From: a virus
Lineage: Duplodnaviria > Heunggongvirae > Uroviricota > Caudoviricetes
Direction: 5' to 3' (one strand)
DNA: 10,216 nucleotides
Virus record (IMG/VR): IMGVR_UViG_2869924733_000001
Location: 1-10,216 of that record
The notes beneath the pieces are model-generated. The model made no database searches and was not told the origin of the DNA. It was given only the letters and a program-made list of their open reading frames with translations. Positions 1-10,216 of this stretch are shown in pieces (position 1 is the stretch's first letter; the number at the start of each line of letters is the position of its first letter). The translations under genes were made by a program, and so were the position numbers.

Positions 1-291
1 TTACGTACGCAGCCGCTCCGGTTTTTTCCACTGGTAAGTCTTTTTCTCGCTCTCCCGGTACATCTCCACGCGGCGACGGTAGGCCAGCAACTCGAGTACT
101 CTGGTGCGTATATTGCGCATATCCACGCCGTTAAGCTCAATACCGTCACGGCGCATCACCTCAGCCACCACACGCGCATAGTTCTCAGCGATAACGCTGT
201 CCGGCTGCGTGGCCTCACGTTTGCCTGCTGCCGGGCTGGCTCCGGTAATGCGGCGAATCATTTTGAGCATTTCGGCTTCTGTCATTGTCAT
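1..291 (-). CDS. Hypothetical protein, last gene of the packaging-region operon in this window
   Basis: ORF 1..315 in track begins with TTG; first ATG at 291 has GGAGG 2 nt upstream, second ATG at 285 has 8-nt spacing. Stop codon occupies window positions 1-3. No Cys, basic C-terminus, no family recognised. Confidence 0.45.
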   Translation of the reverse strand: MTMTEAEMLKMIRRITGASPAAGKREATQPDSVIAENYARVVAEVMRRDGIELNGVDMRNIRTRVLELLAYRRRVEMYRESEKKTYQWKKPERLRT

Positions 292-336
292 GGCCTCCGT
301 GGTGATGGAAAACAATGCCGTAATTGTGGCGGGTCC

Positions 337-394
337 TTCCTGGAAAATGAAACACCGGGGGTAGCCATACGCGCAAAAACGCGCTGTTTATGAG
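337..394 (+). repeat. cos-like inverted repeat copy A (palindrome TTCCTGGAA plus 45-bp core GAAACACCG-N13-GCGCAAAAACGCGCT-GTTTATGA)
   Basis: Core at 349-393 matches copy B (1076-1120, opposite orientation) at 9/9 + 15/15 + 7/8 positions with identical spacing; palindrome at 337-345. Confidence 0.4.
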
Positions 395-463
395 ATTTTT
401 TGAGGGGGTGGTTGTTGTTTAATTGTTTGTTATATCCATTTGATAACTAAGAGAAAACTGAAA

Positions 464-560
464 GCAATACAACAACCTGAGGACGTTTTTTTGATGTTAT
501 GGTTCCCAAAATACCAATTAAATCAAATGGTTTAACAAAAATACGCGGTTGTTGTATTGC
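464..560. repeat. Perfect 14-bp inverted repeat GGTTGTTGTATTGC (464-477 inverted, 547-560 direct) flanking a 69-bp AT-rich spacer; related GGTTGTTGT at 410-418
   Basis: Read directly from sequence; lies immediately downstream of the Nu1-like gene stop (568); on the minus-strand RNA the stem would be followed by a U-rich run. Confidence 0.4.
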
Positions 561-567
561 ATACTTA

Positions 568-1008
568 TTAGCTTTCCTGCTCTGTAACTACAGATTGTTG
601 CAGATGCTCACGGCGAACGGCTACGGCATGACGCCACCCAGCCAGAAAGCCAGCCATTTTATTTCGTGCCTTGCTCACATCTTCCGGCGAGTAGCCGTAA
701 ATCTGCAGACCATTATCAAATCGCTGTTCTGTTTCTTCACTGAAATACTCGTCGCGCTCTGATGAAATCAACCTGGCAACCATAATCTTTTCCAGTGCGC
801 TGGTTTCTCCGTGGTACTCAATAGCATCAAGATGACTTTTACCCATGCACCAGAATAATGTGTGTCCGATGTGATAACCGCCGGACTTTCCGCGATCCGC
901 ATCAAGATACGGCATGCCCTGTTTGGTCCATGCGCGAATAGTGGTTCTGTTGACCTTGAAATGTTCTGCTATTTCCTGCTGACTAACAAAACAATCTTTA
1001 TTATTCAT
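568..1008 (-). CDS. Nu1-type small terminase-like winged-HTH DNA-packaging protein (candidate packaging-redirecting protein)
   Basis: N-terminus FVSQQEIAEHFKVNRTTIRAWTKQGMPYL aligns with lambda Nu1 VNKKQLADIFGASIRTIQNWQEQGMPVL (recalled reference); C-terminal half unlike Nu1; ATG at 1008 with AAGG 9 nt upstream; 146 aa. Confidence 0.65.
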   Translation of the reverse strand: MNNKDCFVSQQEIAEHFKVNRTTIRAWTKQGMPYLDADRGKSGGYHIGHTLFWCMGKSHLDAIEYHGETSALEKIMVARLISSERDEYFSEETEQRFDNGLQIYGYSPEDVSKARNKMAGFLAGWRHAVAVRREHLQQSVVTEQES

Positions 1009-1060
1009 AACGTTACCTTAATAATGCGATTAAATATTAATCAAGTGGTGGTGGTGTACC

Positions 1061-1120
1061 CTTTCCCGGAAAGCGTCATAAATAGCGCGTTTTTGCGCCG
1101 CTCCCGCCCCGCGGTGTTTC
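1061..1120 (-). other. cos-like site copy B: cosN-like GC-rich core, shared 45-bp core, and palindrome CTTTCCcGGAAAG (1061-1073), about 55-110 bp upstream of the Nu1-like start
   Basis: Minus-strand reading CGGGGCGGGAGCGGCGCAAAAACGCGCTATTTATGA matches my recollection of lambda cosN and adjacent bases (CGGGGCGGCGACCTCGCGGGTTTTCGCTATTTATGA) at about 24/36 positions with the same spacing, followed by TTTCCGG as in lambda. Confidence 0.45.
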
Positions 1121-1173
1121 TGATTCTGGAAAGGACCCGTGAAAATTGGGGCGATCACCACCGTTCCGGATAC

Positions 1174-1205
1174 AAAAAAATCGCGAGACCTTGCCAGCCT
1201 CGCGA
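1174..1205 (-). terminator. Rho-independent terminator after the capsid operon
   Basis: Minus-strand RNA: stem UCGCGAG(G) / (U)CUCGCGA with about 9-nt loop followed by U7 (plus-strand A7 at 1174-1180); 14 nt downstream of the 1219..1644 ORF stop. Confidence 0.6.
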
Positions 1206-1218
1206 ACGTTCATTTCAG

Positions 1219-1644
1219 TTACTTAACAGACAGCAACAGCTTTTCATCTTCGGTCAGTCCGGCGTTGCCATCACCGGCTGCTGATCCAACACATTTCGGG
1301 CTGTGCTTTTCCATGTACGCTTCAAACAGAAAAGCCGTTTTCTTTTCCTGCATCATTGCCTGGGCATCCACGGCAGCCAGTAACGTTTGTGCATAGGTTA
1401 CTGTCATTACTTCAGAACCACACTCAATCAGCTTACTGGTGAACTCAGGGTATTTTGATGCCAGCGGTAACGCCTTGATACCCTCTATGCGCTGTTTATC
1501 ACTCTCAGCCTTTGCAGTAAGCACCGTTCGGGCTTCTGTCAGTGATGCGCCATTATTTGCGAGATTTTCCGCAAGCGTCGGGTATTTCTGCGCCTCAGGC
1601 AGTGCCATGATCAATGCTCTGGTTGAATTTGCTTTCTCAGTCAT
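1219..1644 (-). CDS. Hypothetical protein with internal tandem repeat (about 32 aa: ALPxAxKYPxL...), in capsid operon
   Basis: ATG at 1644 with GGTGA 4-5 nt upstream; 14-nt gap after gpD-like stop; two similar segments ALPEAQKYPTLAENLANNGASL / ALPLASKYPEFTSKLIECGSEV. Confidence 0.55.
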   Translation of the reverse strand: MTEKANSTRALIMALPEAQKYPTLAENLANNGASLTEARTVLTAKAESDKQRIEGIKALPLASKYPEFTSKLIECGSEVMTVTYAQTLLAAVDAQAMMQEKKTAFLFEAYMEKHSPKCVGSAAGDGNAGLTEDEKLLLSVK

Positions 1645-1658
1645 AAATCACCACAAAA

Positions 1659-1988
1659 TTATTGCCCTAAAGGCTGCACGGAAATACCGGAACCAACAAA
1701 AGCCGACACTTTTTTCTCGAACGTGTCCGCTGTATCAGGCCAGTTAATTTCATCGATATTAAAAACCCCGCACTTATAAACCTGTGCGCGGTTTTTTGTG
1801 GCCGTGTTAATGTCCGATATGGTCAGATACACCGCCTTACCGGGTGTACCGTCCCACTCAACCATCAGGCCCGCGCCGTTCTGCATCAGCGGAGTTCTCG
1901 CTTTAATTTCTCTGGCACTGGCAAAACAGGCCAGCGTGCTGACCAGTTCCTGCGTGCCGGAAAGTAATTGCGTGTAAGGTGTTGGCAT
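1659..1988 (-). CDS. Head decoration protein, lambda gpD family
   Basis: 109 aa against lambda gpD 110 aa; conserved blocks TPLM, W-G-T, Y-K-x-G-x-F, WP, AF-x-G-x-IS at matching spacing (recalled lambda D sequence); AGGGGA RBS 6 nt upstream of ATG. Confidence 0.8.
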   Translation of the reverse strand: MPTPYTQLLSGTQELVSTLACFASAREIKARTPLMQNGAGLMVEWDGTPGKAVYLTISDINTATKNRAQVYKCGVFNIDEINWPDTADTFEKKVSAFVGSGISVQPLGQ

Positions 1989-1998
1989 ACGATCCCCT

Positions 1999-3054
1999 TT
2001 ATTTCACTTCGACGGTAACAAAGCGACCAATATCCACGGGTACTGGCTGCGGGGCGCTGTGCGTCTGCACGTATTCAATCGCCGGATCGCCCGGTACGAT
2101 ATAATTTTTCGGGTAGTACATCCCCTCAGAAAACCCCTCGCGTGCCGCGTCCTGATCCATGATGGCACCATAAGCAACAAGGCCTTTATTTTCGGTATTG
2201 CCGAAAACCATCATGTTTTGTTTCAGGAAATATTGCTGCTGCCCGTCTTCGTCGTCATAACGACCGGAATAAACCACGAGCGCCACATCACCGAGATACC
2301 CCTTGAAGCTGACAACACCGCCCAAATCTTTTAGCGCAAGTTCAAGTGACGAGTTTGAACCGCGGCGCGTGTCCAGGAGTTCGCGGAATCGACGGAACGA
2401 GCGCAAAATACGCCAGGCTTCGCCACCCATGACGATAATATTTACCGTACCTTTGGAAAAATCAGCGTAAGCCTCAATGTCGCTTATCGGATCAAACGTC
2501 TCGGCATCCTGTTTTGACCATTCTTTCCCGCCAGCCTGTGTAATGTGATTGGTTGCGGGTAATCCCCAGTCAATTTCATAACGCTCGATGCCTTCGCCTT
2601 CGATAACGTTCCTGCCTTTTGTGATGGCATTGACCGCCAGCCATTCAATACGTGCTTTGATGGCAGTGATCTGTTTTTTCTGGCTGTCGTGAACCATTTT
2701 TACGCGGCGTAGTGCCGGGGAAGACTGACCATTGCCGATCTGTTCTCCAGCCATGCGCATGATTGTTTTAGTGGGATCAATAACGTGTTTGGGCTTCATA
2801 TAACCCGGCGTGAAAGTGTTCGTTGTAAAACCTTTGTCACGCATAACCTGACTGCCTGACATTGGTGAACAAAACGGACTCATGACCACGTTTTCAATGT
2901 CCAGCGTATCAAGCGCAATATCTCGCGTACTGAACGTGGCGATATTCGGAAAAAACAGCGTCGTAAAGAGCGGATTAAATTTAAATTCCGGCACATCTTC
3001 GCGCCCGATATTTTTCAGTAGCGTTGGTGTGCTTACCAGTTGCAGCGCTGTCAT
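1999..3054 (-). CDS. Major capsid protein, lambda gpE family
   Basis: 351 aa; long collinear similarity to lambda gpE along the whole length (e.g. FKFNPLF, TFTPGYMKPKH, NHITQAGGKEWSKQDAETFDPISDIEAYA, LDTRRGSNSSLE, DVALVVYSG, YPKNYIVPGDPA, QTHSAP), roughly 45-50 percent identity by eye. Confidence 0.9.
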   Translation of the reverse strand: MTALQLVSTPTLLKNIGREDVPEFKFNPLFTTLFFPNIATFSTRDIALDTLDIENVVMSPFCSPMSGSQVMRDKGFTTNTFTPGYMKPKHVIDPTKTIMRMAGEQIGNGQSSPALRRVKMVHDSQKKQITAIKARIEWLAVNAITKGRNVIEGEGIERYEIDWGLPATNHITQAGGKEWSKQDAETFDPISDIEAYADFSKGTVNIIVMGGEAWRILRSFRRFRELLDTRRGSNSSLELALKDLGGVVSFKGYLGDVALVVYSGRYDDEDGQQQYFLKQNMMVFGNTENKGLVAYGAIMDQDAAREGFSEGMYYPKNYIVPGDPAIEYVQTHSAPQPVPVDIGRFVTVEVK

Positions 3055-3260
3055 TACTCACCCCCATGAGGCTGATTCATGCCAAGCGCAGCGCGTAAAT
3101 GACTGCGTACCATCCAGCCGACTGACGGCTTCACCATGCACAACGGATCAAGGCCGACTTTTTTCCCTGCCTCTGCGTTCTCCTCAAAGCGCGCATTAAG
3201 TGCGGCGATAATATCGGGGCTGATGTACACGGATACACCGCCCGGCTTCTGTGTTCCCAT
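3054..3260 (-). CDS. Small hypothetical protein (68 aa) upstream of and translationally coupled to the capsid gene
   Basis: ATG at 3260 preceded by GAGGAA at 9 nt; its TAA stop overlaps the gpE-like ATG (TAATG). Track ORF extends to ATG 3326, which lacks an RBS. Confidence 0.45.
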   Translation of the reverse strand: MGTQKPGGVSVYISPDIIAALNARFEENAEAGKKVGLDPLCMVKPSVGWMVRSHLRAALGMNQPHGGE

Positions 3261-3312
3261 AAATGAGATTCCTCTTTGACTAAAAAACAAACATAACGAA
3301 AAGTCAGCCATG

Positions 3313-3342
3313 ATTTTAATCATCATTGCATTTTTTGCAATG
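3313..3342 (-). promoter_or_regulatory. Candidate sigma70 promoter of the capsid operon with overlapping palindromes
   Basis: Minus strand: -35 TTGCAA (3335-3340), 16-bp spacer, -10 TAAAAT (3313-3318); -35 embedded in inverted repeats CATTGCA-N5-TGCAATG (3324-3342) and TTGCA-A-TGCAA (3335-3345). Confidence 0.35.
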
Positions 3343-3439
3343 CAATTGACTGTTATTGCAAATCATGAAATCATCATGCCGTGGTTTTAATCCTTGTACC
3401 ACAGAGTCATTCAGCATTAATCACGTTAGCGGTATGAAA

Positions 3440-3471
3440 TCCCCCGGAACCTCATCCCGGGGGATTTTTTT
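3440..3471 (+). terminator. Plus-strand intrinsic terminator hairpin (half of a bidirectional pair)
   Basis: 8-bp stem UCCCCCGG / CCGGGGGA, 9-nt loop, followed by T7 (3465-3471). Confidence 0.45.
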
Positions 3472-3475
3472 GCGC

Positions 3476-3503
3476 ACAAAAAAGCCGGGAAAAATCCCGG
3501 CTT
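3476..3503 (-). terminator. Minus-strand intrinsic terminator ending the replication/SSB operon
   Basis: 9-bp stem AAGCCGGGA / UCCCGGCUU with 4-nt loop, followed on the minus strand by UUUUGU; 15 nt downstream of the SSB stop. Confidence 0.55.
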
Positions 3504-3517
3504 CTGTCACTCGTTGC

Positions 3518-3940
3518 TTAAAACGATATGTTATCCCCGTACGGGGCATCATTTCCCGCCTGTTGTTTTGCCCTGTTCAGTGCGTCAGTAGCCTGGCCCT
3601 GCTGGCCTTTTTTGCCGCCCGGTCGCGCCGTTCGCGCACTGATTACGCTGTCTGCGATAACCTGCCAGCCCTGCCGCGTTTCGCCGTTCTGGCCTGTCCA
3701 CTGGCTTACCTGTATGTTACCCGCCACGCTCACCAGTTCGCCTTTGTGGTGTCTGGCCAGTGCGTCGGCCTGTCTGCCAAACGCCAGGACGGATAACCAC
3801 ATCGTCGCCGTTCCGTCATCGGCCTGGCTGCACGGCAGGGGAACCGCCATACTCGCCATCGCCATTTGTGTCCCTTTGCTGGTGGTCTTTAACTGCGGGT
3901 CAGCCACCAGCCGCCCGTAAGCCGCTATCTGTGCTGTCAT
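3518..3940 (-). CDS. ssb: Single-stranded DNA-binding protein (SSB-like, OB fold)
   Basis: N-terminal GRLVADPQLKTTSKGTQMA resembles the SSB motif; conserved W and G-x-V positions; Gly/Gln-rich linker; acidic C-terminal tip DAPYGDNISF comparable to DDDIPF of E. coli SSB; ATGA overlap with upstream ORF. Confidence 0.7.
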   Translation of the reverse strand: MTAQIAAYGRLVADPQLKTTSKGTQMAMASMAVPLPCSQADDGTATMWLSVLAFGRQADALARHHKGELVSVAGNIQVSQWTGQNGETRQGWQVIADSVISARTARPGGKKGQQGQATDALNRAKQQAGNDAPYGDNISF

Positions 3941-4188
3941 GCTGTCACCTCTCCGGTTTTAACGTTGATGGTTGTCACCTGTTCCGCTTCCGCAATTTCC
4001 CGCTCAGTCAGCGTGGCAAAGTTTGCCGCCGCCGTGGTCATGAATGCGCTTATCAGTTCGGGATGTGCTTTCGCGTATCCTTCCCCGGCATGGCGGTCTA
4101 TCGTTCTGATTGCCACCTTTAAGGCGCGCTCTGTCATGTCTAATGCGCGATATTTTGGCGCTGTCTTATCTCTGGTTTTTCTGGTCAT
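3937..4188 (-). CDS. Hypothetical protein (83 aa), first gene after the putative origin, coupled to ssb
   Basis: ATG at 4188 with GGGGAG 9 nt upstream; stop overlaps SSB start (ATGA). Confidence 0.5.
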   Translation of the reverse strand: MTRKTRDKTAPKYRALDMTERALKVAIRTIDRHAGEGYAKAHPELISAFMTTAAANFATLTEREIAEAEQVTTINVKTGEVTA

Positions 4189-4197
4189 TCCTCACTG

Positions 4198-4391
4198 CTC
4201 CCCACTTTTACTACCCACTTTTTGAAATTACCCAACGTCTCCCCACTTCTTTTTTTTGTGATTCTAACGTGATGTTTTTCAATGTATTTTTTATTCCCCA
4301 CTTTTTGGGGTATATACAGGTGAGAAAGTGGGGAATCGCGTTTCAATTTTGTTAAATTCCCCGCACTCCCCACTTTTACTACCCACTTTTT
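4198..4391. repeat. Iteron array, putative replication origin: 26-bp perfect direct repeat CTCCCCACTTTTACTACCCACTTTTT (4198-4223 and 4366-4391) plus further CCCACTT copies
   Basis: Seven copies of CCCACTT(T) (six direct, one inverted at 4327-4333) in about 195 bp; inverted pair CCCCACTTT / AAAGTGGGG flanks AT-rich GGTATATACAGG; immediately 3' of the replication protein gene. Confidence 0.5.
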
Positions 4392-5805
4392 ACAGTGGGC
4401 GCACGTCATCACCGTCAATAGCAATAACGCCATCACCTTCCAGCTTGTACAGCCAGCGCCGGAAGTGTTTCATCTCATACCCCAGCTTTTTCATATCATC
4501 GCGCAACAACGGAATTGTGCATTTATCGCCGCGCTGTGTGCGTGAACGGATACAGCCCCATAGCGCGGCATGATTCTCCGTCTTGTTCCCGGCTTCCTCG
4601 ATGCGCTCCAGTTCAACGGGTGGGCGCGGTTTATCCACAACCACCAGCGACGTGATTAACTCCCCGTCAGTGTCGGTAAAAAGCTCCACCACACGTAAAT
4701 CGTATGCAGCCTCTTTCAGTTCCTCCGCGTCCTTCATTTTGGTGCAGGAGATAACCAGGGCTTCACTGTCTGCACCTTCACGGCGAATACGGTATTCAGC
4801 GTCCAGAGATGCACGAAATGCACTGGAACCACGCGCTCCCTTTGTTTCATCCTTGCCGGAATGGTGAACCACCAGCACCGTGGACCCTGTGCGTCGTTTC
4901 AGTTCGTCACATCCACGGATAAACGCCCCCATATCCCGCGCGTCATTTTCATCATTACCGCCAAAACACCGCGCCAGCGTATCCAGAATAATCATGCGTA
5001 CCGGTTTACCCGTTTCCCTTTCAACCTGGCGGGAAGCGATGACCATTTCATCGACATCAAGCGGGACTGCCGGAAAAATCGGGCGGTTTACCAGGTACAG
5101 ATTTTCCACCCGTTTATCATTAACGATTTCCCATGCCTTGATACGGCGGGGGACACCAATGCCACCTTCACCGACAACATACATCACCGAACCATGCGCC
5201 ACCCTGCGGCCTCCCCAGTGGCGACCCGTGGCAACATGACACGCCCAGGAACACGCGAGGAACGATTTATAGGAACCGCTCGCGCCGTATGTGCTACACA
5301 ATGAATTAGCCGGAATCACGCCTTTAACGACATAATCAAGCTGTGTGTCGTACCCTGCAGATCCAATGCTCATTGGTAGCGTGGTTTTTCGCTGGCTGTA
5401 TTGCTCGTCAGTAAGAATTTCCCCGCGCTCTGCCTGTTCGCGGATCCGTTGCAGGTAGTCGTGCCAGTTCTCCAGCTTCTGGCTGTGCATTCCATCAGGG
5501 TAATAATTCGCATCCCGTACACCTGCCGCCGCCAGCTTTTGCCCGATAGCATTAATATTTGACGGCTTGATGTGGCCTGCCTTGTACAGCCGGACACAAT
5601 AGCGACCATCGTCGATAATTTTCAGGTCTGCCAGTTCGTCAAGCTGGCTGTCTCCAAGCCATACAGGCGGAACATTGTCGCCAGCAAGTCGCCCGTCCTG
5701 CTCCTGCCATTGTTTCGCGTGCGCCCAGGCATCACTACCCGCAAAAATAATGACTTCGGTCATTTTGTCGTGTGGCTGTTTTTTTAAGTTCGGTGCCAGT
5801 TTCAT
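4390..5805 (-). CDS. Replication protein: primase/helicase-type, RecA-fold (AAA_25 / RepA-like) ATPase with N-terminal toprim-like region and C-terminal putative DNA-binding region
   Basis: Walker A YGASGSYKSF, Walker B VRMIILDTLA, and LVVHHSGKDETKGARGSSAFRASLDAEY typical of RepA/DnaB-like helicases; ATG at 5805 with AGGGG 9 nt upstream; ATGA overlap with upstream ORF. Confidence 0.85.
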   Translation of the reverse strand: MKLAPNLKKQPHDKMTEVIIFAGSDAWAHAKQWQEQDGRLAGDNVPPVWLGDSQLDELADLKIIDDGRYCVRLYKAGHIKPSNINAIGQKLAAAGVRDANYYPDGMHSQKLENWHDYLQRIREQAERGEILTDEQYSQRKTTLPMSIGSAGYDTQLDYVVKGVIPANSLCSTYGASGSYKSFLACSWACHVATGRHWGGRRVAHGSVMYVVGEGGIGVPRRIKAWEIVNDKRVENLYLVNRPIFPAVPLDVDEMVIASRQVERETGKPVRMIILDTLARCFGGNDENDARDMGAFIRGCDELKRRTGSTVLVVHHSGKDETKGARGSSAFRASLDAEYRIRREGADSEALVISCTKMKDAEELKEAAYDLRVVELFTDTDGELITSLVVVDKPRPPVELERIEEAGNKTENHAALWGCIRSRTQRGDKCTIPLLRDDMKKLGYEMKHFRRWLYKLEGDGVIAIDGDDVRPL

Positions 5806-6101
5806 TTTGTGCCCCTGAATGCGTTAATCATGTTTTTCATTTTCTGAATATTTGCCCGTGCCTTTGCGTTGCTGGTGGGCTGTCTGCGTGGTGTGGCCTG
5901 TACCAGCGAAAAATCACGCCGGAACTGATAAACAGGCATCACGCAGTCATAGCCGTACCCATCACGGCGGTAAGTAACGCACCGTCCCGCCACGCTTTTA
6001 ATCGTTACCGTGCCGCCGTAGTTATCCCGGAAAATATCGCCGGGGCGGATTTCAGGCCGAGCGGGGCCGCTGGCAGTAAAGCCAGAATTTTTCTGTTTCA
6101 T
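5802..6101 (-). CDS. Hypothetical protein (99 aa), replication operon
   Basis: GAGGAA RBS 9 nt upstream of ATG 6101; stop overlaps primase start. Confidence 0.5.
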   Translation of the reverse strand: MKQKNSGFTASGPARPEIRPGDIFRDNYGGTVTIKSVAGRCVTYRRDGYGYDCVMPVYQFRRDFSLVQATPRRQPTSNAKARANIQKMKNMINAFRGTK

Positions 6102-6106
6102 GGTTT

Positions 6107-6316
6107 TTATTCCTCTGCGCGGGTCTTGTCGTGTATTTCCATAACCGCGTTTAATTCATCAATAACCGGGGTTAACAGAGTGCTGAAAGCAGAAAATAAA
6201 TCCCCCCCCTGTTCGGCATGAACTTCGGTTAATTTAATTAATACCGCTTTCATTTCCAGTGCCCGGTTTAATGCATTCTCAGAATGAATAAGAACATCGA
6301 AAGGGATTTCATTCAT
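6107..6316 (-). CDS. Hypothetical protein (69 aa), replication operon; contains a G8 tract
   Basis: GGAGG 9-10 nt upstream of ATG 6316; coding-strand G8 at 6202-6209 encodes QGGD. Confidence 0.5.
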   Translation of the reverse strand: MNEIPFDVLIHSENALNRALEMKAVLIKLTEVHAEQGGDLFSAFSTLLTPVIDELNAVMEIHDKTRAEE

Positions 6317-6569
6317 GGCTCACCACCTCCGGGAATTTTCTTCTGTAACGCGCCTCTGCAACATATTCCGCATAGTCCGACGCAATATTGAGAATCTCCG
6401 CACCCTCTGACCTGTAGCCACTGGTATTGATAAGAAAAAATGCGGCTTTTATCATGTCAGCAACGCCCAACAATGCGTCTGCTTCGTGTTCCGGTGCGCC
6501 ATCAAATTCCTGTTTCAGGGCATTAAAACGATCATCACGCATAACCCCCCCCATTTTCACAATCAGCAA
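6309..6569 (-). CDS. Hypothetical protein (up to 86 aa; start uncertain: 6569, 6554 or 6542)
   Basis: ORF from track; candidate starts overlap the end of the upstream Icd-like ORF and a G8 tract (6545-6552); 8-nt overlap with downstream ORF start. Confidence 0.4.
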   Translation of the reverse strand: MLIVKMGGVMRDDRFNALKQEFDGAPEHEADALLGVADMIKAAFFLINTSGYRSEGAEILNIASDYAEYVAEARYRRKFPEVVSHE

Positions 6570-6969
6570 TCAGAATGGCTTTGGCCTCATTCAGTGCCAT
6601 ATCAGCGGTAAGCTGTGCGTAGGCCAGCGAATGCGGGATTATTGCCCCTGTATATTCCGGCTCTCTGGTAATGTGTTTTTCTGCGGTTGCTGCCGTGTGT
6701 GAAATATCAATCAGCGCGCGCATCAGTGTTTTGATGGCTTCGGCGGCTGCGTCCGGACGGGTGTTATTGCACATGGTGCACCCCTGACGAATACGGGCGG
6801 CGAATACCATCACACAGCCATCAGGAGATTGCTGGCGTGCTTCCTGTTCGCTGGTGGCCTCAATGGTAATCACGCGCGGTTGTGCTGTGCTCAGGGCGAT
6901 AAAACGCCAGATGTATTTATTCAGGTTGTGCGAGTCCCGCCCTTGCGGGTGTGTGGTATGATTTCTCAT
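6535..6969 (-). CDS. Icd-like protein (P4-type host cell division inhibitor family, tentative), first gene of the leftward operon
   Basis: ATG at 6969 with GAGG 5 nt upstream; N-terminus MRNHTTHPQGRDSHNLNKYIWRF...FAARIRQG resembles Icd-like proteins of P4-type prophages (from memory); it is the 3' part of the spurious 476-aa track ORF. Confidence 0.45.
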   Translation of the reverse strand: MRNHTTHPQGRDSHNLNKYIWRFIALSTAQPRVITIEATSEQEARQQSPDGCVMVFAARIRQGCTMCNNTRPDAAAEAIKTLMRALIDISHTAATAEKHITREPEYTGAIIPHSLAYAQLTADMALNEAKAILIADCENGGGYA

Positions 6970-7064
6970 AGCTACCTCGATACTCTCGTTATCGTTGGTG
7001 GTTAGAAGCCCGTTGGTGTTGGTAGCACCTGCGGGCTTTGTCTTTTCATCGATTACCTCAATAA

Positions 7065-7148
7065 AGGTGTCAGCCACTATACTAGTAACAGGTGTCAGCC
7101 ACGTCAATAGTGTTTTTCCATTTTCTTGTGTGTATACTGTCAGCCACC
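7065..7148. promoter_or_regulatory. Divergent promoter/operator region with three copies of (A)GGTGTCAGCCAC
   Basis: Repeats at 7065-7077, 7090-7102 and 7137-7148; leftward promoter -35 TTGACG (7102-7107) / -10 TAGTAT (7079-7084), 17-bp spacer, with repeats in the spacer and at +1; rightward -10 TATACT (7133-7138) abutting repeat 3. Confidence 0.55.
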
Positions 7149-7168
7149 TAATAACAAGGAAATCAGAT

Positions 7169-7348
7169 ATGGCAACGAAAGCAGTTAATGGAAAATCCAA
7201 AAAACTTGAGGCACGAGTCCCCCATGCAATAGCTGACGCTGTAGAAAATTTAAAGGAAGAAGGTGAAAGCACTGGGCAATTTATCGTTTCGGCACTTGAA
7301 GGCGAGATCAAACGCCGCCAGCGTCGCAAGGCCAAAGAGCAGGAGTAA
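7169..7348 (+). CDS. Ribbon-helix-helix (CopG/Arc-like) DNA-binding protein, candidate repressor of the switch
   Basis: 59 aa; AAGGAA RBS 7 nt upstream of ATG; beta-strand KKLEARVP then two helices (HAIADAVENLKEEG, STGQFIVSALEGEI), basic tail; only convincing plus-strand gene. Confidence 0.6.
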   Translation: MATKAVNGKSKKLEARVPHAIADAVENLKEEGESTGQFIVSALEGEIKRRQRRKAKEQE

Positions 7349-7405
7349 CCATCACCAGCGCCGTGGTGTGAGTAACTACGGCGCATTGCTATGCAGGACA
7401 ACACA

Positions 7406-7558
7406 ATGACCGATAAAGAATTGACCAAAACATTATCACCGGCACGGAAAAGACGGCGCAGAAAGATAGAACATGAATCAGAAAGATTCGCGCCATGTGC
7501 TTTTGCCCTCGAGCAATTCCTTAAAGAGTACAGGGAAAAGCGCTCATTGCAGGTATGA
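7406..7558 (+). CDS. Small basic ORF (50 aa), possibly co-transcribed with the RHH gene
   Basis: ATG 7406 with AGGA 7 nt upstream; protein MTDKELTKTLSPARKRRRRK...; below the track length cut-off; followed by a plus-strand terminator about 100 nt downstream. Confidence 0.3.
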   Translation: MTDKELTKTLSPARKRRRRKIEHESERFAPCAFALEQFLKEYREKRSLQV

Positions 7559-7658
7559 CAACGAACTGAACCAGACTGATTGCATTGCCCACCAGCCGCA
7601 AATGTGGCATTGTTGGCGATGCTCATGCGTTGGGGATAACGCGAAATTTGTGTCGCAG

Positions 7659-7686
7659 GGCCACCGTGACTGGTGGCCTTTTCTTT
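7659..7686 (+). terminator. Plus-strand intrinsic terminator (end of RHH / small ORF transcript)
   Basis: 7-bp GC-rich stem GGCCACC / GGTGGCC, 6-nt loop, followed by TTTTCTTT. Confidence 0.55.
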
Positions 7687-7739
7687 ACCTGTTATCCGGC
7701 AATAGTGGCGCTTCTTCACACAGTTGATATAATTCCCCT

Positions 7740-7810
7740 GCACTGATCCAATTTTTTCGCAGCAGGTTAATTGTTCGCAAGGGCGCTCCGGTAACGGGGC
7801 GCTTTTTGTT
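7740..7810 (+). ncRNA. Candidate small RNA (about 70 nt) between a consensus extended -10 promoter and an intrinsic terminator, convergent with alpA
   Basis: TGaTATAAT at 7725-7733 (-10 hexamer matches consensus 6/6); terminator stem GCGCTCCG / CGGGGCGC with GTAA loop (7783-7802) plus TTTTTGTT (7803-7810); no ORF in between. Confidence 0.35.
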
Positions 7811-7828
7811 ATGTGCATCGCTCCCCCC

Positions 7829-8041
7829 TTACGCCGTTTGCGTCCTGCGAGTGGATGCAAGATAAGCATCGAGATCAGAGCGCATATACAGCACTTTGCG
7901 CCCCAGCTTATGGAAAGGGATTTTTTCTTTACCAGTACACGCCCAGTTAGCAAGAGTCTGGACACTTACCCCCAAATGCTCGGCGGCTTCTTTGCGGGTC
8001 ATTTTTTCTTGAGAATTGATTACGTTCACAAGTAACTCCAC
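7829..8041 (-). CDS. alpA: AlpA / excisionase-family HTH DNA-binding protein
   Basis: MTRKEAAEHLGVSVQTLANW...KIPFHKLGRKVLYMRSDLDAYL matches the excisionase/AlpA HTH pattern; track start is GTG 8041 (AGGT RBS), alternative ATG at 8002. Confidence 0.75.
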   Translation of the reverse strand: MELLVNVINSQEKMTRKEAAEHLGVSVQTLANWACTGKEKIPFHKLGRKVLYMRSDLDAYLASTRRTQTA

Positions 8042-8112
8042 GTATTACCTATTGTTACCGTGAGCTACTTTAGTTTTTTGCTGTGGGGGCGGTAAGGTGA
8101 AAAGCTGATTTT

Positions 8113-8161
8113 CCCAGGGGAAAGCAGGTAAGCCAGGGGAATAGCTGCTTTTACCCTGGCT
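8113..8161. promoter_or_regulatory. Direct repeats CCAGGGGAA(A/T)AGC(A/T)G (8114-8128, 8133-8147) with two mutually exclusive hairpins, between the AT-rich gene and alpA
   Basis: Stem A AAAGCAG / CTGCTTT (about 8120-8149) and stem B AGCCAGGG / CCCTGGCT (8131-8161) overlap, so only one can form. Confidence 0.3.
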
Positions 8162-8174
8162 GATAAAAAATTTT

Positions 8175-8795
8175 TTATGCGTACTCTGGCGGGATCACCA
8201 GTTCTGAGTTTTTGTACTTTTTGTCAGGTGGTGGCGGCGGGGCTAGTTTTTCACTTTTTATCCAGCACTTGATTGTTTCCTCGCTTATCCGGCCCTCATA
8301 TCGACGCGACAGCTTCGCAATCATTTTTGTTTTGGATAGTGCTGGTTCTTTCTTCCATGTGGCTTTCATGATGGCGACTATCTCATCATGTAAATAGTGG
8401 CGGGGACCGGAGGCGGCTTCACTTCTTCTTCTTTTGATAACACCATCAGATATTAATCTAATAACTTTGCCACCACCTTTTGAGGCTATACAGGCTCTTT
8501 TGTATACCCATGAAAGATCCTCAGCAGTATTTTTATATCCAAGTAGCTCTAGTATTAAGATGGATTTCAGAAATACATTAGCACTATGACCTATGTTTAT
8601 CTCCCCTGTTTTGTCTAACGCTAAATATCCTTCCTTATCAATCCTTGCTGCTATTCTTTTCCTTTCTGCTTTTCTATAATATTTAAATTTATCTTTCAAT
8701 TCATACACATGCTCGCTCATTTCCTTTTCGACTTGCTCAAGATAATCATATAATTCAATTCTTGTATCATCATCCACTACATCCCAAACTTTCAT
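8175..8795 (-). CDS. Hypothetical protein (206 aa), AT-rich 5' half, translationally coupled to the integrase; candidate accessory/cargo gene
   Basis: ATG at 8795 overlaps the integrase TGA (ATGA); codons for about the first 110 aa lie in visibly AT-rich DNA (8460-8795) while the 3' half is of ordinary composition; proline run PPPPP near C-terminus; no family recognised. Confidence 0.6.
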   Translation of the reverse strand: MKVWDVVDDDTRIELYDYLEQVEKEMSEHVYELKDKFKYYRKAERKRIAARIDKEGYLALDKTGEINIGHSANVFLKSILILELLGYKNTAEDLSWVYKRACIASKGGGKVIRLISDGVIKRRRSEAASGPRHYLHDEIVAIMKATWKKEPALSKTKMIAKLSRRYEGRISEETIKCWIKSEKLAPPPPPDKKYKNSELVIPPEYA

Positions 8796-10216
8796 TTAGA
8801 CGATACCTCTAAATTTTTGTTTATGATTTTGAAAATTAATTGGCGTTTTTCATCATCACTCATGCTCTCCAGTGCAGAAAGCAATTGCGCATCAATAGAT
8901 TTTTTACTCTCCACCAGCCCGGCATGTTCCAGAATTGCCCGTTCTATCCGTGACGCTGGCTCCAGCAGTTCATCAGCACCAAAATGTAAATACCCCTGCG
9001 TTACGTCAGCACTTCTCATAGTGCGGTGATTCATCAGGCGCTTGAGGGTGTAATTACCCACGCCCACCAGTTCGGCAACCGTTCCGAACGTCCGGCGCGC
9101 ATCGTGCCATTTGAATGGTACAGGGGAGAGCATTTCATCGTTCGACTCTGGGACGGTAGCCGCGCTTATCCGGTCTATGATGTGCCGTGTTTCCTGAATC
9201 ACTCCCTTTGCTCCAGGAAACACCAGTACATCATCAGCGTTTTTTATTTTCAGCCTGCGGCGGAACATTTCCCGCAACGTATCGGTGATCGGTAGCTCGA
9301 GCGGATCCCCGTTTTTCGTGGTATCTATCCAGAAAAAACGACCGCCCATATTCACGCGATCCCACGTAAGGCCAAAAATTTCTGATTTTCTCAGTCCGGT
9401 AAAAAGTGCCATTTCCACGGCATCACATACCGTCACCGCTATATCATCCCTTTCCTGTTCGCCCTGGTCACGTACAGCAGCTACAGCAGCAAACCAGCGG
9501 GGAAAATCATGCAGGCGGATACGTTCCGTTTTTCTTACCGTTCCGTGCCACTGTCGTTTGGTACTCAGTACCAGCGTCGGCGGATCCGGTAAAAGAGTAT
9601 TACCCGCATCATCACGGTAATGATCATGCGCAAACCGACACACGGCACGCAGCGCACGCGCCCATAAATCGGCCTGTGCCTTGCTTCCTGTGCCAACCCC
9701 AGCCCGTAACGTGGTTTTATCAGCACCGAACCATACAGCCCCGTTTGTGACAGCCTTATGCCGCTGTTCCACCCGTTCGCGGGTAATACTGGCGAGGGTA
9801 TGGGCCATCCAGTCACCGGAATAATTCTGTAATATGCTGCGGTACTGTTTTTCTGTGGCGGGTTTCAGGCGGTGGCCACGATTTTTTATGTAGGCTTCAA
9901 GCGCCTCATTCAGCGTTATCATGGCCTTGTTGTTCGTGCGCTTCGCTATGTTCGGGTTTTTCCCCGTTGTGGCGACCTCTCCAAGGAGTTCCATAGCTTT
10001 AGCCCTGGCATTGTCCACACTCAGATCGGGAAAACGCCCCAGCGTTGCACGAATAAATTTTCCGTTACGCTTACGGGAAATGCAGAAACTTTTCACACCA
10101 GACGAACCCACACGGACACGCAGCCCGTTAACCTCCGTATCACCATATTCGACCTGTCCATGTTCCGGCGTTGGCAGTTCTGCAATTTTTACTTTAGAGA
10201 ATCTGAATAATTTCAC
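8792..10216 (-). CDS. int: Tyrosine recombinase / integrase (P4-type, N-terminal arm-binding domain); 5' end at window edge
   Basis: N-terminal arm-type domain (KIAELPTPEHG...GLRVRVGSSGVKSF...RATLGRFPDLSVDNARAKA); catalytic-domain motifs LRKSE, HDARRT, NHRT...GYLH; ORF starts with GTG at the last window base, so the true start may lie beyond. Confidence 0.9.
   Translation of the reverse strand: MKLFRFSKVKIAELPTPEHGQVEYGDTEVNGLRVRVGSSGVKSFCISRKRNGKFIRATLGRFPDLSVDNARAKAMELLGEVATTGKNPNIAKRTNNKAMITLNEALEAYIKNRGHRLKPATEKQYRSILQNYSGDWMAHTLASITRERVEQRHKAVTNGAVWFGADKTTLRAGVGTGSKAQADLWARALRAVCRFAHDHYRDDAGNTLLPDPPTLVLSTKRQWHGTVRKTERIRLHDFPRWFAAVAAVRDQGEQERDDIAVTVCDAVEMALFTGLRKSEIFGLTWDRVNMGGRFFWIDTTKNGDPLELPITDTLREMFRRRLKIKNADDVLVFPGAKGVIQETRHIIDRISAATVPESNDEMLSPVPFKWHDARRTFGTVAELVGVGNYTLKRLMNHRTMRSADVTQGYLHFGADELLEPASRIERAILEHAGLVESKKSIDAQLLSALESMSDDEKRQLIFKIINKNLEVSSK

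Follow-up and report, generated by a model that had tools for sequence, protein, structure and literature searches.

The DNA examined here is a stretch of 10,216 nucleotides (nt) from a virus of the class Caudoviricetes (IMG/VR record IMGVR_UViG_2869924733_000001, positions 1 to 10,216), to which we refer in its whole length as the window. The window is a P4-related Gram-negative phage satellite of the capsid-forming phage-inducible chromosomal island (PICI) type. On its plus strand, at 7169-7686, it carries a compact unit made up of a gene for a ribbon-helix-helix (RHH) protein, a second small open reading frame (ORF2) for an arginine-rich protein, and a terminator. A preliminary description had proposed a 59-amino-acid (aa) RHH gene, a 57-nt spacer and a 50-aa basic ORF, forming a separate plus-strand transcription unit. 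These coordinates agree with the sequence, the RHH assignment is confirmed by an NCBIfam match, and gene, small ORF and terminator do stand as a plus-strand unit; what had been overlooked is that the unit is nested antisense within a long minus-strand ORF and is accompanied by three candidate operators. The terminator, described earlier as canonical, was called as intrinsic and recurs at the same place after ORF2 in relatives, in four different sequence types. The features of the region are as follows (SD, Shine-Dalgarno sequence; UTR, untranslated region).

6535 to 7818, minus strand: eta/kil-like leader ORF, ATG at 7816-7818 with SD GGGGGGAG, 10 nt after the alpA stop; 427 aa here
7066 to 7077, plus strand: candidate operator O1 (GGTGTCAGCCAC), recognised by repeats and co-variation
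7079 to 7107, minus strand: leftward promoter-like site TTGACG-17-TAGTAT upstream of icd/kil, 9/12 consensus matches
7091 to 7102, plus strand: candidate operator O2 (GGTGTCAGCCAC), abutting the -35 of the leftward promoter
7136 to 7147, plus strand: candidate operator O3 (ACTGTCAGCCAC), overlapping the -10 TATACT (7133-7138) of the putative RHH promoter
7169 to 7348, plus strand: ORF1, the RHH gene, 59 aa, YlcI/YnfO family; ATG 7169, TAA 7346-7348, SD AAGGA 7156-7160
7349 to 7405: spacer between the RHH gene and ORF2, 57 nt, invariant in length
7358 to 7384, plus strand: conserved spacer hairpin, fold -20.2 kcal/mol, z -2.28 as plus RNA versus -0.22 as minus RNA
7406 to 7558, plus strand: ORF2, small Arg-rich protein gene, 50 aa; ATG 7406, TGA 7556-7558, SD AGGA 7394-7397
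7559 to 7656, plus strand: structured 3' UTR, fold z -2.79
7657 to 7686, plus strand: intrinsic terminator of the RHH-ORF2 unit, G+C-rich stem 7657-7680 and T run to 7686
7725 to 7812, plus strand: candidate small antisense RNA unit, with extended -10 TGATATAAT at 7725-7733 and intrinsic terminator at 7779-7812
7829 to 8041, minus strand: alpA (HTH_17/excisionase-type activator; Pfam HTH_17, E 6e-13; TIGR01764), upstream of the leader ORF

The RHH gene, its alleles and their candidate operators

The NCBIfam model YlcI_YnfO_N (NF041551) matches residues 9-50 of ORF1 with 61.9 bits (E 4.2e-17), above the curated cut-off of 30 for this family hidden Markov model (HMM), which places the protein in the YlcI/YnfO family; phrog_949 matches it as well. 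An AlphaFold model built from 28 homologues (pLDDT, the predicted local distance difference test, 88) has an extended N-terminus followed by two helices, and the N-terminal strand, the two helices and a G-x-S/T turn before helix B are those of the RHH (Arc/MetJ/CopG) fold. Pfam gave no match to either ORF1 or ORF2, a PDB sequence search with ORF1 returned none, and Foldseek with the ORF1 model returned nothing significant. No match to the RHH protein was obtained by tblastn against 50,697 GenBank phage records, for which the short query may be the explanation. Over 513 sequence pairs, the ratio of nonsynonymous to synonymous polymorphism (pN/pS) of the RHH gene is 0.21. The idea that the plus-strand ORFs are mere shadows of a sole real ORF on the minus strand was rejected on the basis of the family HMM, the fold, this pN/pS value and the operator co-variation described below.

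We compared 163 loci from IMG/VR and Escherichia coli genomes, chosen as sharing ORF2. More than 35 alleles fill the RHH slot in these loci, and all of them end exactly 57 nt before the ORF2 ATG. They comprise the 59-aa YlcI kind, a ~101-aa YlcI kind with an inserted segment, a 65-aa type and two Arc-like RHH types, the Arc-like ones matching phrog_228. We interpret the RHH gene of the window as one allele of a swap (specificity) cassette.

The long YlcI-type alleles of ~101-106 aa (L004, L008, L010 and others in IMG/VR) carry an insertion of ~42 aa between the RHH core and the basic tail (AEGSGENPL.SSLDALA.VE..GIKAAEE.GQL...AREEL; phrog_6522), possibly an extra domain for oligomerisation or sensing. 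Other genera have different ORFs behind the RHH gene: a 94-aa BrnT-like (DUF497-looking) one in Superficieibacter (L195), and 79-87-aa ORFs overlapping the RHH stop in Kosakonia (L179) and Raoultella (L208).

Upstream of the RHH gene, the sequence TGTCAGCCAC occurs in three exact copies within 82 bp (7068-7077, 7093-7102 and 7138-7147), against a chance expectation of 0.58 in the whole window at no more than one mismatch. The candidate operators are confined to the back-to-back promoter region of the element, and those of this allele are 11 bp long with the form GTG-N5-CAC. Every allele has its own three repeats at fixed sites, about -103, -78 and -31 from the ATG, and the repeat sequence varies with the predicted beta-strand residues across alleles and genera. 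The repeats are GTGTCAGCCAC in this window and GTGTTGAACAC, GTGTAAGACAC, GTGAATCGCAC, GTGTGGCCCAC or GTGTATTTCAC in other alleles, with ATGGTAATTACCAT in the Arc-like type. The strand KKLEARVPH is paired with GTGTCAGCCAC in both E. coli and Xenorhabdus, and the strand QQLNARFPHDVV with GTGAATCGCAC in both E. coli and Pectobacterium. Three repeats that co-vary with strand residues of ORF1 are consistent with an RHH dimer whose sheet reads the half-sites.

Most alleles retain a hexamer of TATACT type with an operator after it, at about -36 to -25 relative to the ATG, and most cassettes retain the CACGTCAA/CACTTCAA sequence adjoining O2. O1 and O2 bracket the leftward promoter-like site, which faces icd. 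The layout is that of a repressor controlling two back-to-back promoters, and we infer binding and repression from it. Because the three candidate operators co-vary with the beta-strand over these promoters, the RHH protein would be the allele-specific repressor of the element.

All cassette types keep a G+C hairpin just left of O1 (7003-7045 here; AAGCCCG...CGGGCTT), which on the plus strand has a T run. As part of the minus RNA it belongs to the icd leader (fold z -4.06). Read on the plus strand it resembles a terminator, and would shield the RHH promoter from antisense read-in.

The antisense leader frame is kept open

The leader ORF runs antisense through the entire RHH-ORF2 cassette into an Icd/Kil-like domain, which has an internal ATG at 6969 with its own SD (GAGG); the Icd-like model NF033153 matches the leader ORF with E 1.6e-18. 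The minus strand is stop-free from 7965 to 6535, and in the leader frame the wobble positions of the two strands coincide. Twelve control genes of the window have 0.023 stops per codon in the leader phase, so that ~10 would be expected in 427 codons.

This openness is general among relatives. The frame is open for 209-506 codons in 128/128 distinct E. coli-type loci and continues into Icd in 90 of them. Every RHH allele, the Arc types included, has 0 stops in the leader antisense frame, as compared with 0-9 in the other two. In a set of 67 loci, drawn from about 25 genera of the Enterobacterales (among them Pectobacterium, Yersinia, Xenorhabdus, Serratia, Proteus, Hafnia and Dickeya), the leader frame is the longest antisense frame in 64; it measures 65-568 codons, mostly more than 100, and the other two antisense frames 10-115. 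Relatives with at least 8 different alpA junctions have an in-frame leader start 5-60 nt beyond the alpA stop, and in several other genera the start overlaps the alpA stop by 4-14 nt.

The synonymous sites of the RHH gene point the same way. We examined 91 distinct RHH coding sequences, with shared ancestry left uncorrected. A wobble T before a His or Gln codon, which gives an antisense TGA, is found at 4/356 sites; elsewhere in the same genes wobble T occurs at 887/3550 sites, and before His/Gln codons in control genes at 21/136. Tyr codons are preceded by purines only (7/7), and the Pro-His site often has CCA, CCC or CCG but hardly ever CCT. Synonymous codon resampling leads one to expect 51.7 +/- 6.6 antisense stops, of which 4 were observed; 89 of the 91 sequences are stop-free, against ~50 expected and a maximum of 66 in 500 resamplings. 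An open frame by chance or composition was rejected on this resampling and on the ~10 stops expected.

The amino-acid sequence of the leader frame is not conserved: its BLOSUM score is like that of non-coding frames, and its translation differs between cassettes. As far as sequence comparison goes, the leader frame is kept open by selection. Because the frame is stop-free while its amino-acid sequence is unconserved, the selected trait would be uninterrupted translation; selection on the opposite frame appears to favour its translation and not its encoded content. No clear C-rich region for Rho loading emerged from the GC skew of the minus RNA.

The annotation pipeline PGAP treats the N-terminal portion of the leader as a pseudogene, named 'Icd-like protein' or 'hypothetical protein' and marked incomplete with its C-terminus missing (minus strand; L001 7451-7988, L002 5843-6436, L231 1379-1858), and leaves ORF2 unannotated. 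The overlap with YlcI seems to break the leader gene call.

The Icd-like ORF itself (6535-6969, minus) has 144 aa here versus 68 aa in relatives. Compared with the closely related locus L001, a 1-nt deletion around 6770-6780 removes the icd stop and fuses icd in frame to the next gene, of phrog_5146/2512 type, whose normal ATG overlaps the icd stop.

ORF2 is probably a real gene, damaged in this copy

The product of ORF2 in the window is MTDKELTKTLSPARKRRRRKIEHESERFAPCAFALEQFLKEYREKRSLQV, with an RKRRRRK run; an alternative ATG at 7391 would give 55 aa. ORF2 is intact in 162/163 related loci at 57-59 aa, ending in ...WQRTEPD at a fixed stop position. The 50-aa ORF of the preliminary description behaves as coding, and the family form is longer: in the window ORF2 is truncated by a TGG>TGA change (A7558, codon 7556-7558) that is unique among the 163 loci, the ancestral stop being at 7577-7579. 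In the leader frame on the minus strand the same change is silent (TGC>TGT, Cys). Given the truncation of ORF2 and the icd fusion, this copy may be decaying or defective.

Conservation and selection on the small ORF in relatives had been named earlier as a check, and both speak for a coding sequence. Its indels are in frame only (3 or 6 nt), and its ATG and SD AGG are invariant while the intervening bases vary. The pN/pS of the ORF2 frame, 0.35, is the lowest of the six frames (antisense frame 0.49, others 0.83-1.27). Its amino-acid replacements have a mean BLOSUM62 score of -0.31 versus -1.08 in the antisense frame, the same contrast as in the RHH gene (-0.53 versus -1.13), and a coding-strand-type A>T skew spans 7150-7600. 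The suggestion that the small ORF is a non-coding leader is disfavoured by its intactness, its pN/pS and its conservative replacements. We therefore regard ORF2 as probably a real gene that is damaged in this copy.

The ORF2 module is present in 1293/5426 complete E. coli genomes, and its 33 called proteins all come from E. coli or Shigella. phrog_21027 matches ORF2 with E 1e-15, and an AlphaFold (AF2) model has two helices (pLDDT 72). A profile search against 1.8 billion representatives retrieved only 9 clusters and no distant relatives, tblastn against the same 50,697 GenBank phage records found no match, and no toxin or defence family was matched in Pfam, NCBIfam or PADLOC. In about 25 other genera, ORF2 does not follow the gene of this RHH family. 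Because it is missing from genera that share the RHH and leader-ORF arrangement, ORF2 is not essential to the design; its most likely role is that of a nucleic-acid-binding accessory of the switch proposed below.

In the spacer hairpin 91.5% of cells are paired; the changes are one-sided G.U changes with no compensatory pairs, and the shuffle control was not exceeded. In the 3' UTR the first ~44 nt after the ancestral ORF2 stop are conserved and the remainder is mosaic.

A candidate small antisense RNA

The RHH-ORF2 unit had been called the only plus-strand coding in the window. For proteins this stands, as the 8 other long plus-strand ORFs have no Pfam match; it does not take in the candidate small RNA unit at 7725-7812. 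Its extended -10 TGATATAAT is perfect, and about 45 related loci of 86-100% identity all share it unchanged. The candidate RNA of ~73 nt would be antisense to the leader ORF over its first ~25 codons (ATG 7818), and is predicted to fold into a U-rich single-stranded 5' part and two hairpins (z -2.93); it has no Rfam match. From these signals we infer a candidate small RNA unit.

A search for an immunity RNA of the C4/CI type (C4, isrK) led to its rejection: an Rfam scan of the whole window at E<=1 gave no match within 6900-7900, only terminator-like matches at 3434-3554. The latter (minus strand) are two tandem terminator-like hairpins downstream of the gene for the single-stranded DNA-binding protein (SSB), with sub-threshold matches to ncr1175 (37.5 bits against a gathering score of 60) and SorY; they are most likely plain terminators rather than those small RNAs.

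The element

The recognisable genes of the window, all on the minus strand, follow the order int - alpA - icd - helicase - SSB - capsid, and include DUF4222 and Icd-like genes. Outside the region listed above, the main ones are these.

8792 to 10216, minus strand: integrase
4390 to 5805, minus strand: RepA-type helicase
3518 to 3940, minus strand: SSB
1999 to 3054, minus strand: major capsid ORF

The closest annotated E. coli loci, L001 and L002 (the latter from an O157:H7 strain and of EcCIEDL933 type), have the same gene order. The arrangement int - alpA - (Bro/immunity zone) - replication - capsid/packaging in one direction is that of Gram-negative PICIs and capsid-forming PICIs, in which the Bro/immunity zone has been delineated (PMC10111431). 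The assignment of the window to the capsid-forming Gram-negative PICIs is based on this gene order and on its recurrence in L001 and L002. Region 6900-7900 is matched in 1680/5426 complete E. coli genomes.

Between int and alpA lies an accessory gene of 206 aa (8175-8795, minus), whose sole family hit is a weak one to HTH_32 (E 1e-3); PHROGs and PADLOC gave no match to its product, which has a PPPPP stretch close to the C-terminus. PADLOC gave no defence-system match for the RHH protein, ORF2, the 206-aa protein or the leader ORF.

Comparison with known control systems

The closest parallel to the leader is eta of P4. Like the window leader, eta is a long ORF at or just after an alpA-type gene that ends in an Icd/Kil-like domain: it spans 8168-8812 (214 aa), overlaps the end of vis (the alpA homologue), and is matched by NF033153 at residues 161-208 (E 1.4e-20). 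The window has the corresponding arrangement, with a leader start at the end of alpA and a C-terminal Kil/Icd-like domain that has an internal start. In P4, eta shows translational coupling with the alpA homologue, and its translation prevents termination and allows read-through from the upstream promoter (PMC10111431, citing Forti et al. 1999); inside eta lie a constitutive promoter and the CI immunity RNA, and Kil is a short internal form (PMC10111431). P4 has an internal promoter, PLE, and a CI RNA with seqA/seqB targets, and the window likewise has a candidate internal leftward promoter upstream of the short Kil/Icd form. Unlike P4, whose eta has no annotated antisense gene, the window has as its putative immunity determinant, in place of a C4/CI-type RNA, a protein repressor gene and a small ORF on the opposite strand within the leader, with a promoter, operators and terminator of their own.

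Two further resemblances concern the RHH protein. In P22 immI, as is proposed for the window, small RHH repressors (Arc, Mnt) act at closely spaced opposed promoters and are accompanied by a small antisense RNA (sar); unlike the window, P22 immI controls an antirepressor gene (ant), and its repressor genes are not nested antisense in a long translated ORF. For the YlcI/YnfO family (NF041551; prophages DLP12 and Qin of E. coli K-12) we found no described function in the literature, and the family description includes neither the operator co-variation nor the antisense nesting found here.

In the immI region of P1 and P7 (c4 antisense RNA - icd - ant), translation of an Icd-family leader governs downstream transcription. 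Inhibition of icd leader translation at the RNA level is reportedly the immunity principle of P1/P7 (Biere, Citron & Schuster, 1992). C4 arises by processing of the same transcript, and its action on short target sites is in trans, whereas any antisense RNA of the window would be cis-encoded, ~540 nt long and also the repressor mRNA. In the switches of coliphages 186 and P2, the maintenance-repressor and lytic-operon units lie face to face, allowing transcriptional interference. The overlap in the window is of ~650 nt and covers whole genes, and the lytic-side RNA would be translated across the repressor gene.

Weighing of the interpretations

We consider it moderately likely, at a probability of about 0.6, that the unit is a rightward maintenance/immunity operon, that is, an allele-specific repressor operon lying convergent inside a translated eta/kil-like leader ORF; the grounds are the sequence patterns set out above. 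A type II toxin-antitoxin pair, with the RHH protein as antitoxin and autorepressor and ORF2 as a small basic toxin, had already been doubted in the preliminary description, and rightly so. The unit does resemble type II modules with RHH antitoxins of the CopG/ParD/RelB class in its RHH fold, small size and two-gene organisation, but it lacks a recognisable toxin: ORF2 has no match in Pfam, NCBIfam or PADLOC and no clue at the level of PDB sequences, and phrog_21027, its only match, is of unknown function. ORF2 is an orphan, with 9 representative clusters, and is no co-evolving partner, as it remains nearly constant while the RHH gene is swapped, even for non-homologous Arc-like types, and is missing beside the same RHH family in about 25 other genera. 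The genes are neither overlapped nor coupled but have between them a hairpin-bearing spacer of an invariant 57 nt; of the three operators, two lie over the divergent icd/kil promoter, beyond the promoter of the unit itself; and in this copy ORF2 is truncated while the RHH gene is intact. We give such a pair very little credence. Somewhat less improbable, and still unlikely, is the view that ORF2 is no gene and that a conserved 275-nt block (7349-7623) acts as an RNA that pairs with the leader mRNA, or as a small RNA derived from the 3' UTR. In-frame indels and an excess of wobble changes are equally expected from constraint on the minus frame, RefSeq seldom annotates ORF2, both spacer and 3' UTR have structure, homologues of ORF2 are confined to these satellites, and the nonsense codon that the window tolerates is silent in the minus frame. 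Yet an RNA accounts poorly for an ATG and SD AGG conserved around varying bases, for a stop at a fixed position in 162/163 loci, for a plus frame with the lowest pN/pS and more conservative replacements than its antisense, as in the RHH gene, or for the A>T skew; moreover, a cis-antisense RNA pairs without needing sequence conservation.

About as improbable, perhaps by a shade more so, is the possibility that the RHH protein is an autoregulated accessory, acting for example on helper-phage or host promoters, rather than a master repressor, and that the leader is open as a long Icd-like protein. YlcI/YnfO homologues in the lambdoid prophages DLP12 and Qin (by family name), a leftward promoter with only 9/12 consensus matches and the treatment of long Icd-like forms by PGAP as protein evidence agree with it. 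The operators, on the other hand, are confined to the back-to-back promoter region of the element, two of the three on the side of the leftward promoter. A sequence-specific long leader protein is unlikely because the antisense translation is unconserved between cassettes and scores like non-coding frames. Several observations weigh against the maintenance/immunity operon that we favour. The -35 of the RHH promoter is weak, and a consensus promoter scan made no call there. The leader ORF stops before icd in 38/128 loci, ~23 nt upstream in many of those checked, and the statistics on antisense-stop avoidance ignore kinship among the 91 RHH sequences. For ORF2, the pN/pS of 0.35 is modestly below the 0.49 of the antisense frame, its variable sites at codon positions 1/2/3 (23/25/36) indicate weak constraint, and other genera that share the RHH and leader-ORF arrangement do without it. 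Finally, the copy in the window carries both the truncated ORF2 and the icd fusion.

A proposed switch and its implications

In Gram-negative PICIs, AlpA autoactivates its own expression, downstream expression is AlpA-dependent, and the repressor has been described as 'unclear' (PMC6092414). The searchable literature on the immunity zone of Gram-negative PICIs makes no mention of YlcI, RHH or antisense genes. Because of the position of the operators and their co-variation, the RHH protein most likely shuts off the lytic-type operon and autoregulates. It would repress the leftward promoter that drives icd/kil, replication and packaging, conferring allele-specific immunity, and would regulate its own expression through the operator overlapping its promoter. 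Transcripts from the AlpA promoter would need translation of the leader ORF in order to escape termination or polarity and reach the downstream genes, as in P4 eta. In the quiescent state, the convergent ~540-nt RHH-ORF2 mRNA and the bound repressor would hinder this read-through. The second, small antisense RNA possibly opposes it as well; by analogy with P1 C4 and P4 CI, this ~73-nt RNA might put a brake on translation. ORF2 would play an accessory part, its Arg-rich helix perhaps binding nucleic acid. Upon induction, helper-induced autoactivation of alpA would lead to strong ribosome-coupled read-through that interferes with the RHH promoter and flips the switch.

We offer the full scheme tentatively, and hold it to be possible rather than probable: the YlcI/Arc-type RHH cassette would be the allele-specific master repressor of Gram-negative PICIs and capsid-forming PICIs, would form an antisense dual-coding pair with a translated leader, and would take part in a contest between the strands that includes the ~73-nt RNA, with ORF2 as an RNA- or DNA-binding accessory. 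Control of the P4 eta/kil leader type is already known; what would be new for these satellites is repressor-type control with an RHH cassette.

The overlap also has a practical side in annotation, as pipelines mark the leader ORF as a pseudogene and skip ORF2. With a concrete candidate repressor whose operators are matched and whose specificity alleles are many, direct tests of immunity groups, of helper-triggered derepression and of engineered PICI control become possible. The antisense overlap appears to be a maintained one, a gene of 60-100 codons inside a frame that is stop-free across about 25 genera; the opposite strand has left a visible imprint on synonymous sites in the embedded gene. 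Selection for translation itself, if this reading holds, would generalise the principle of P4 eta.

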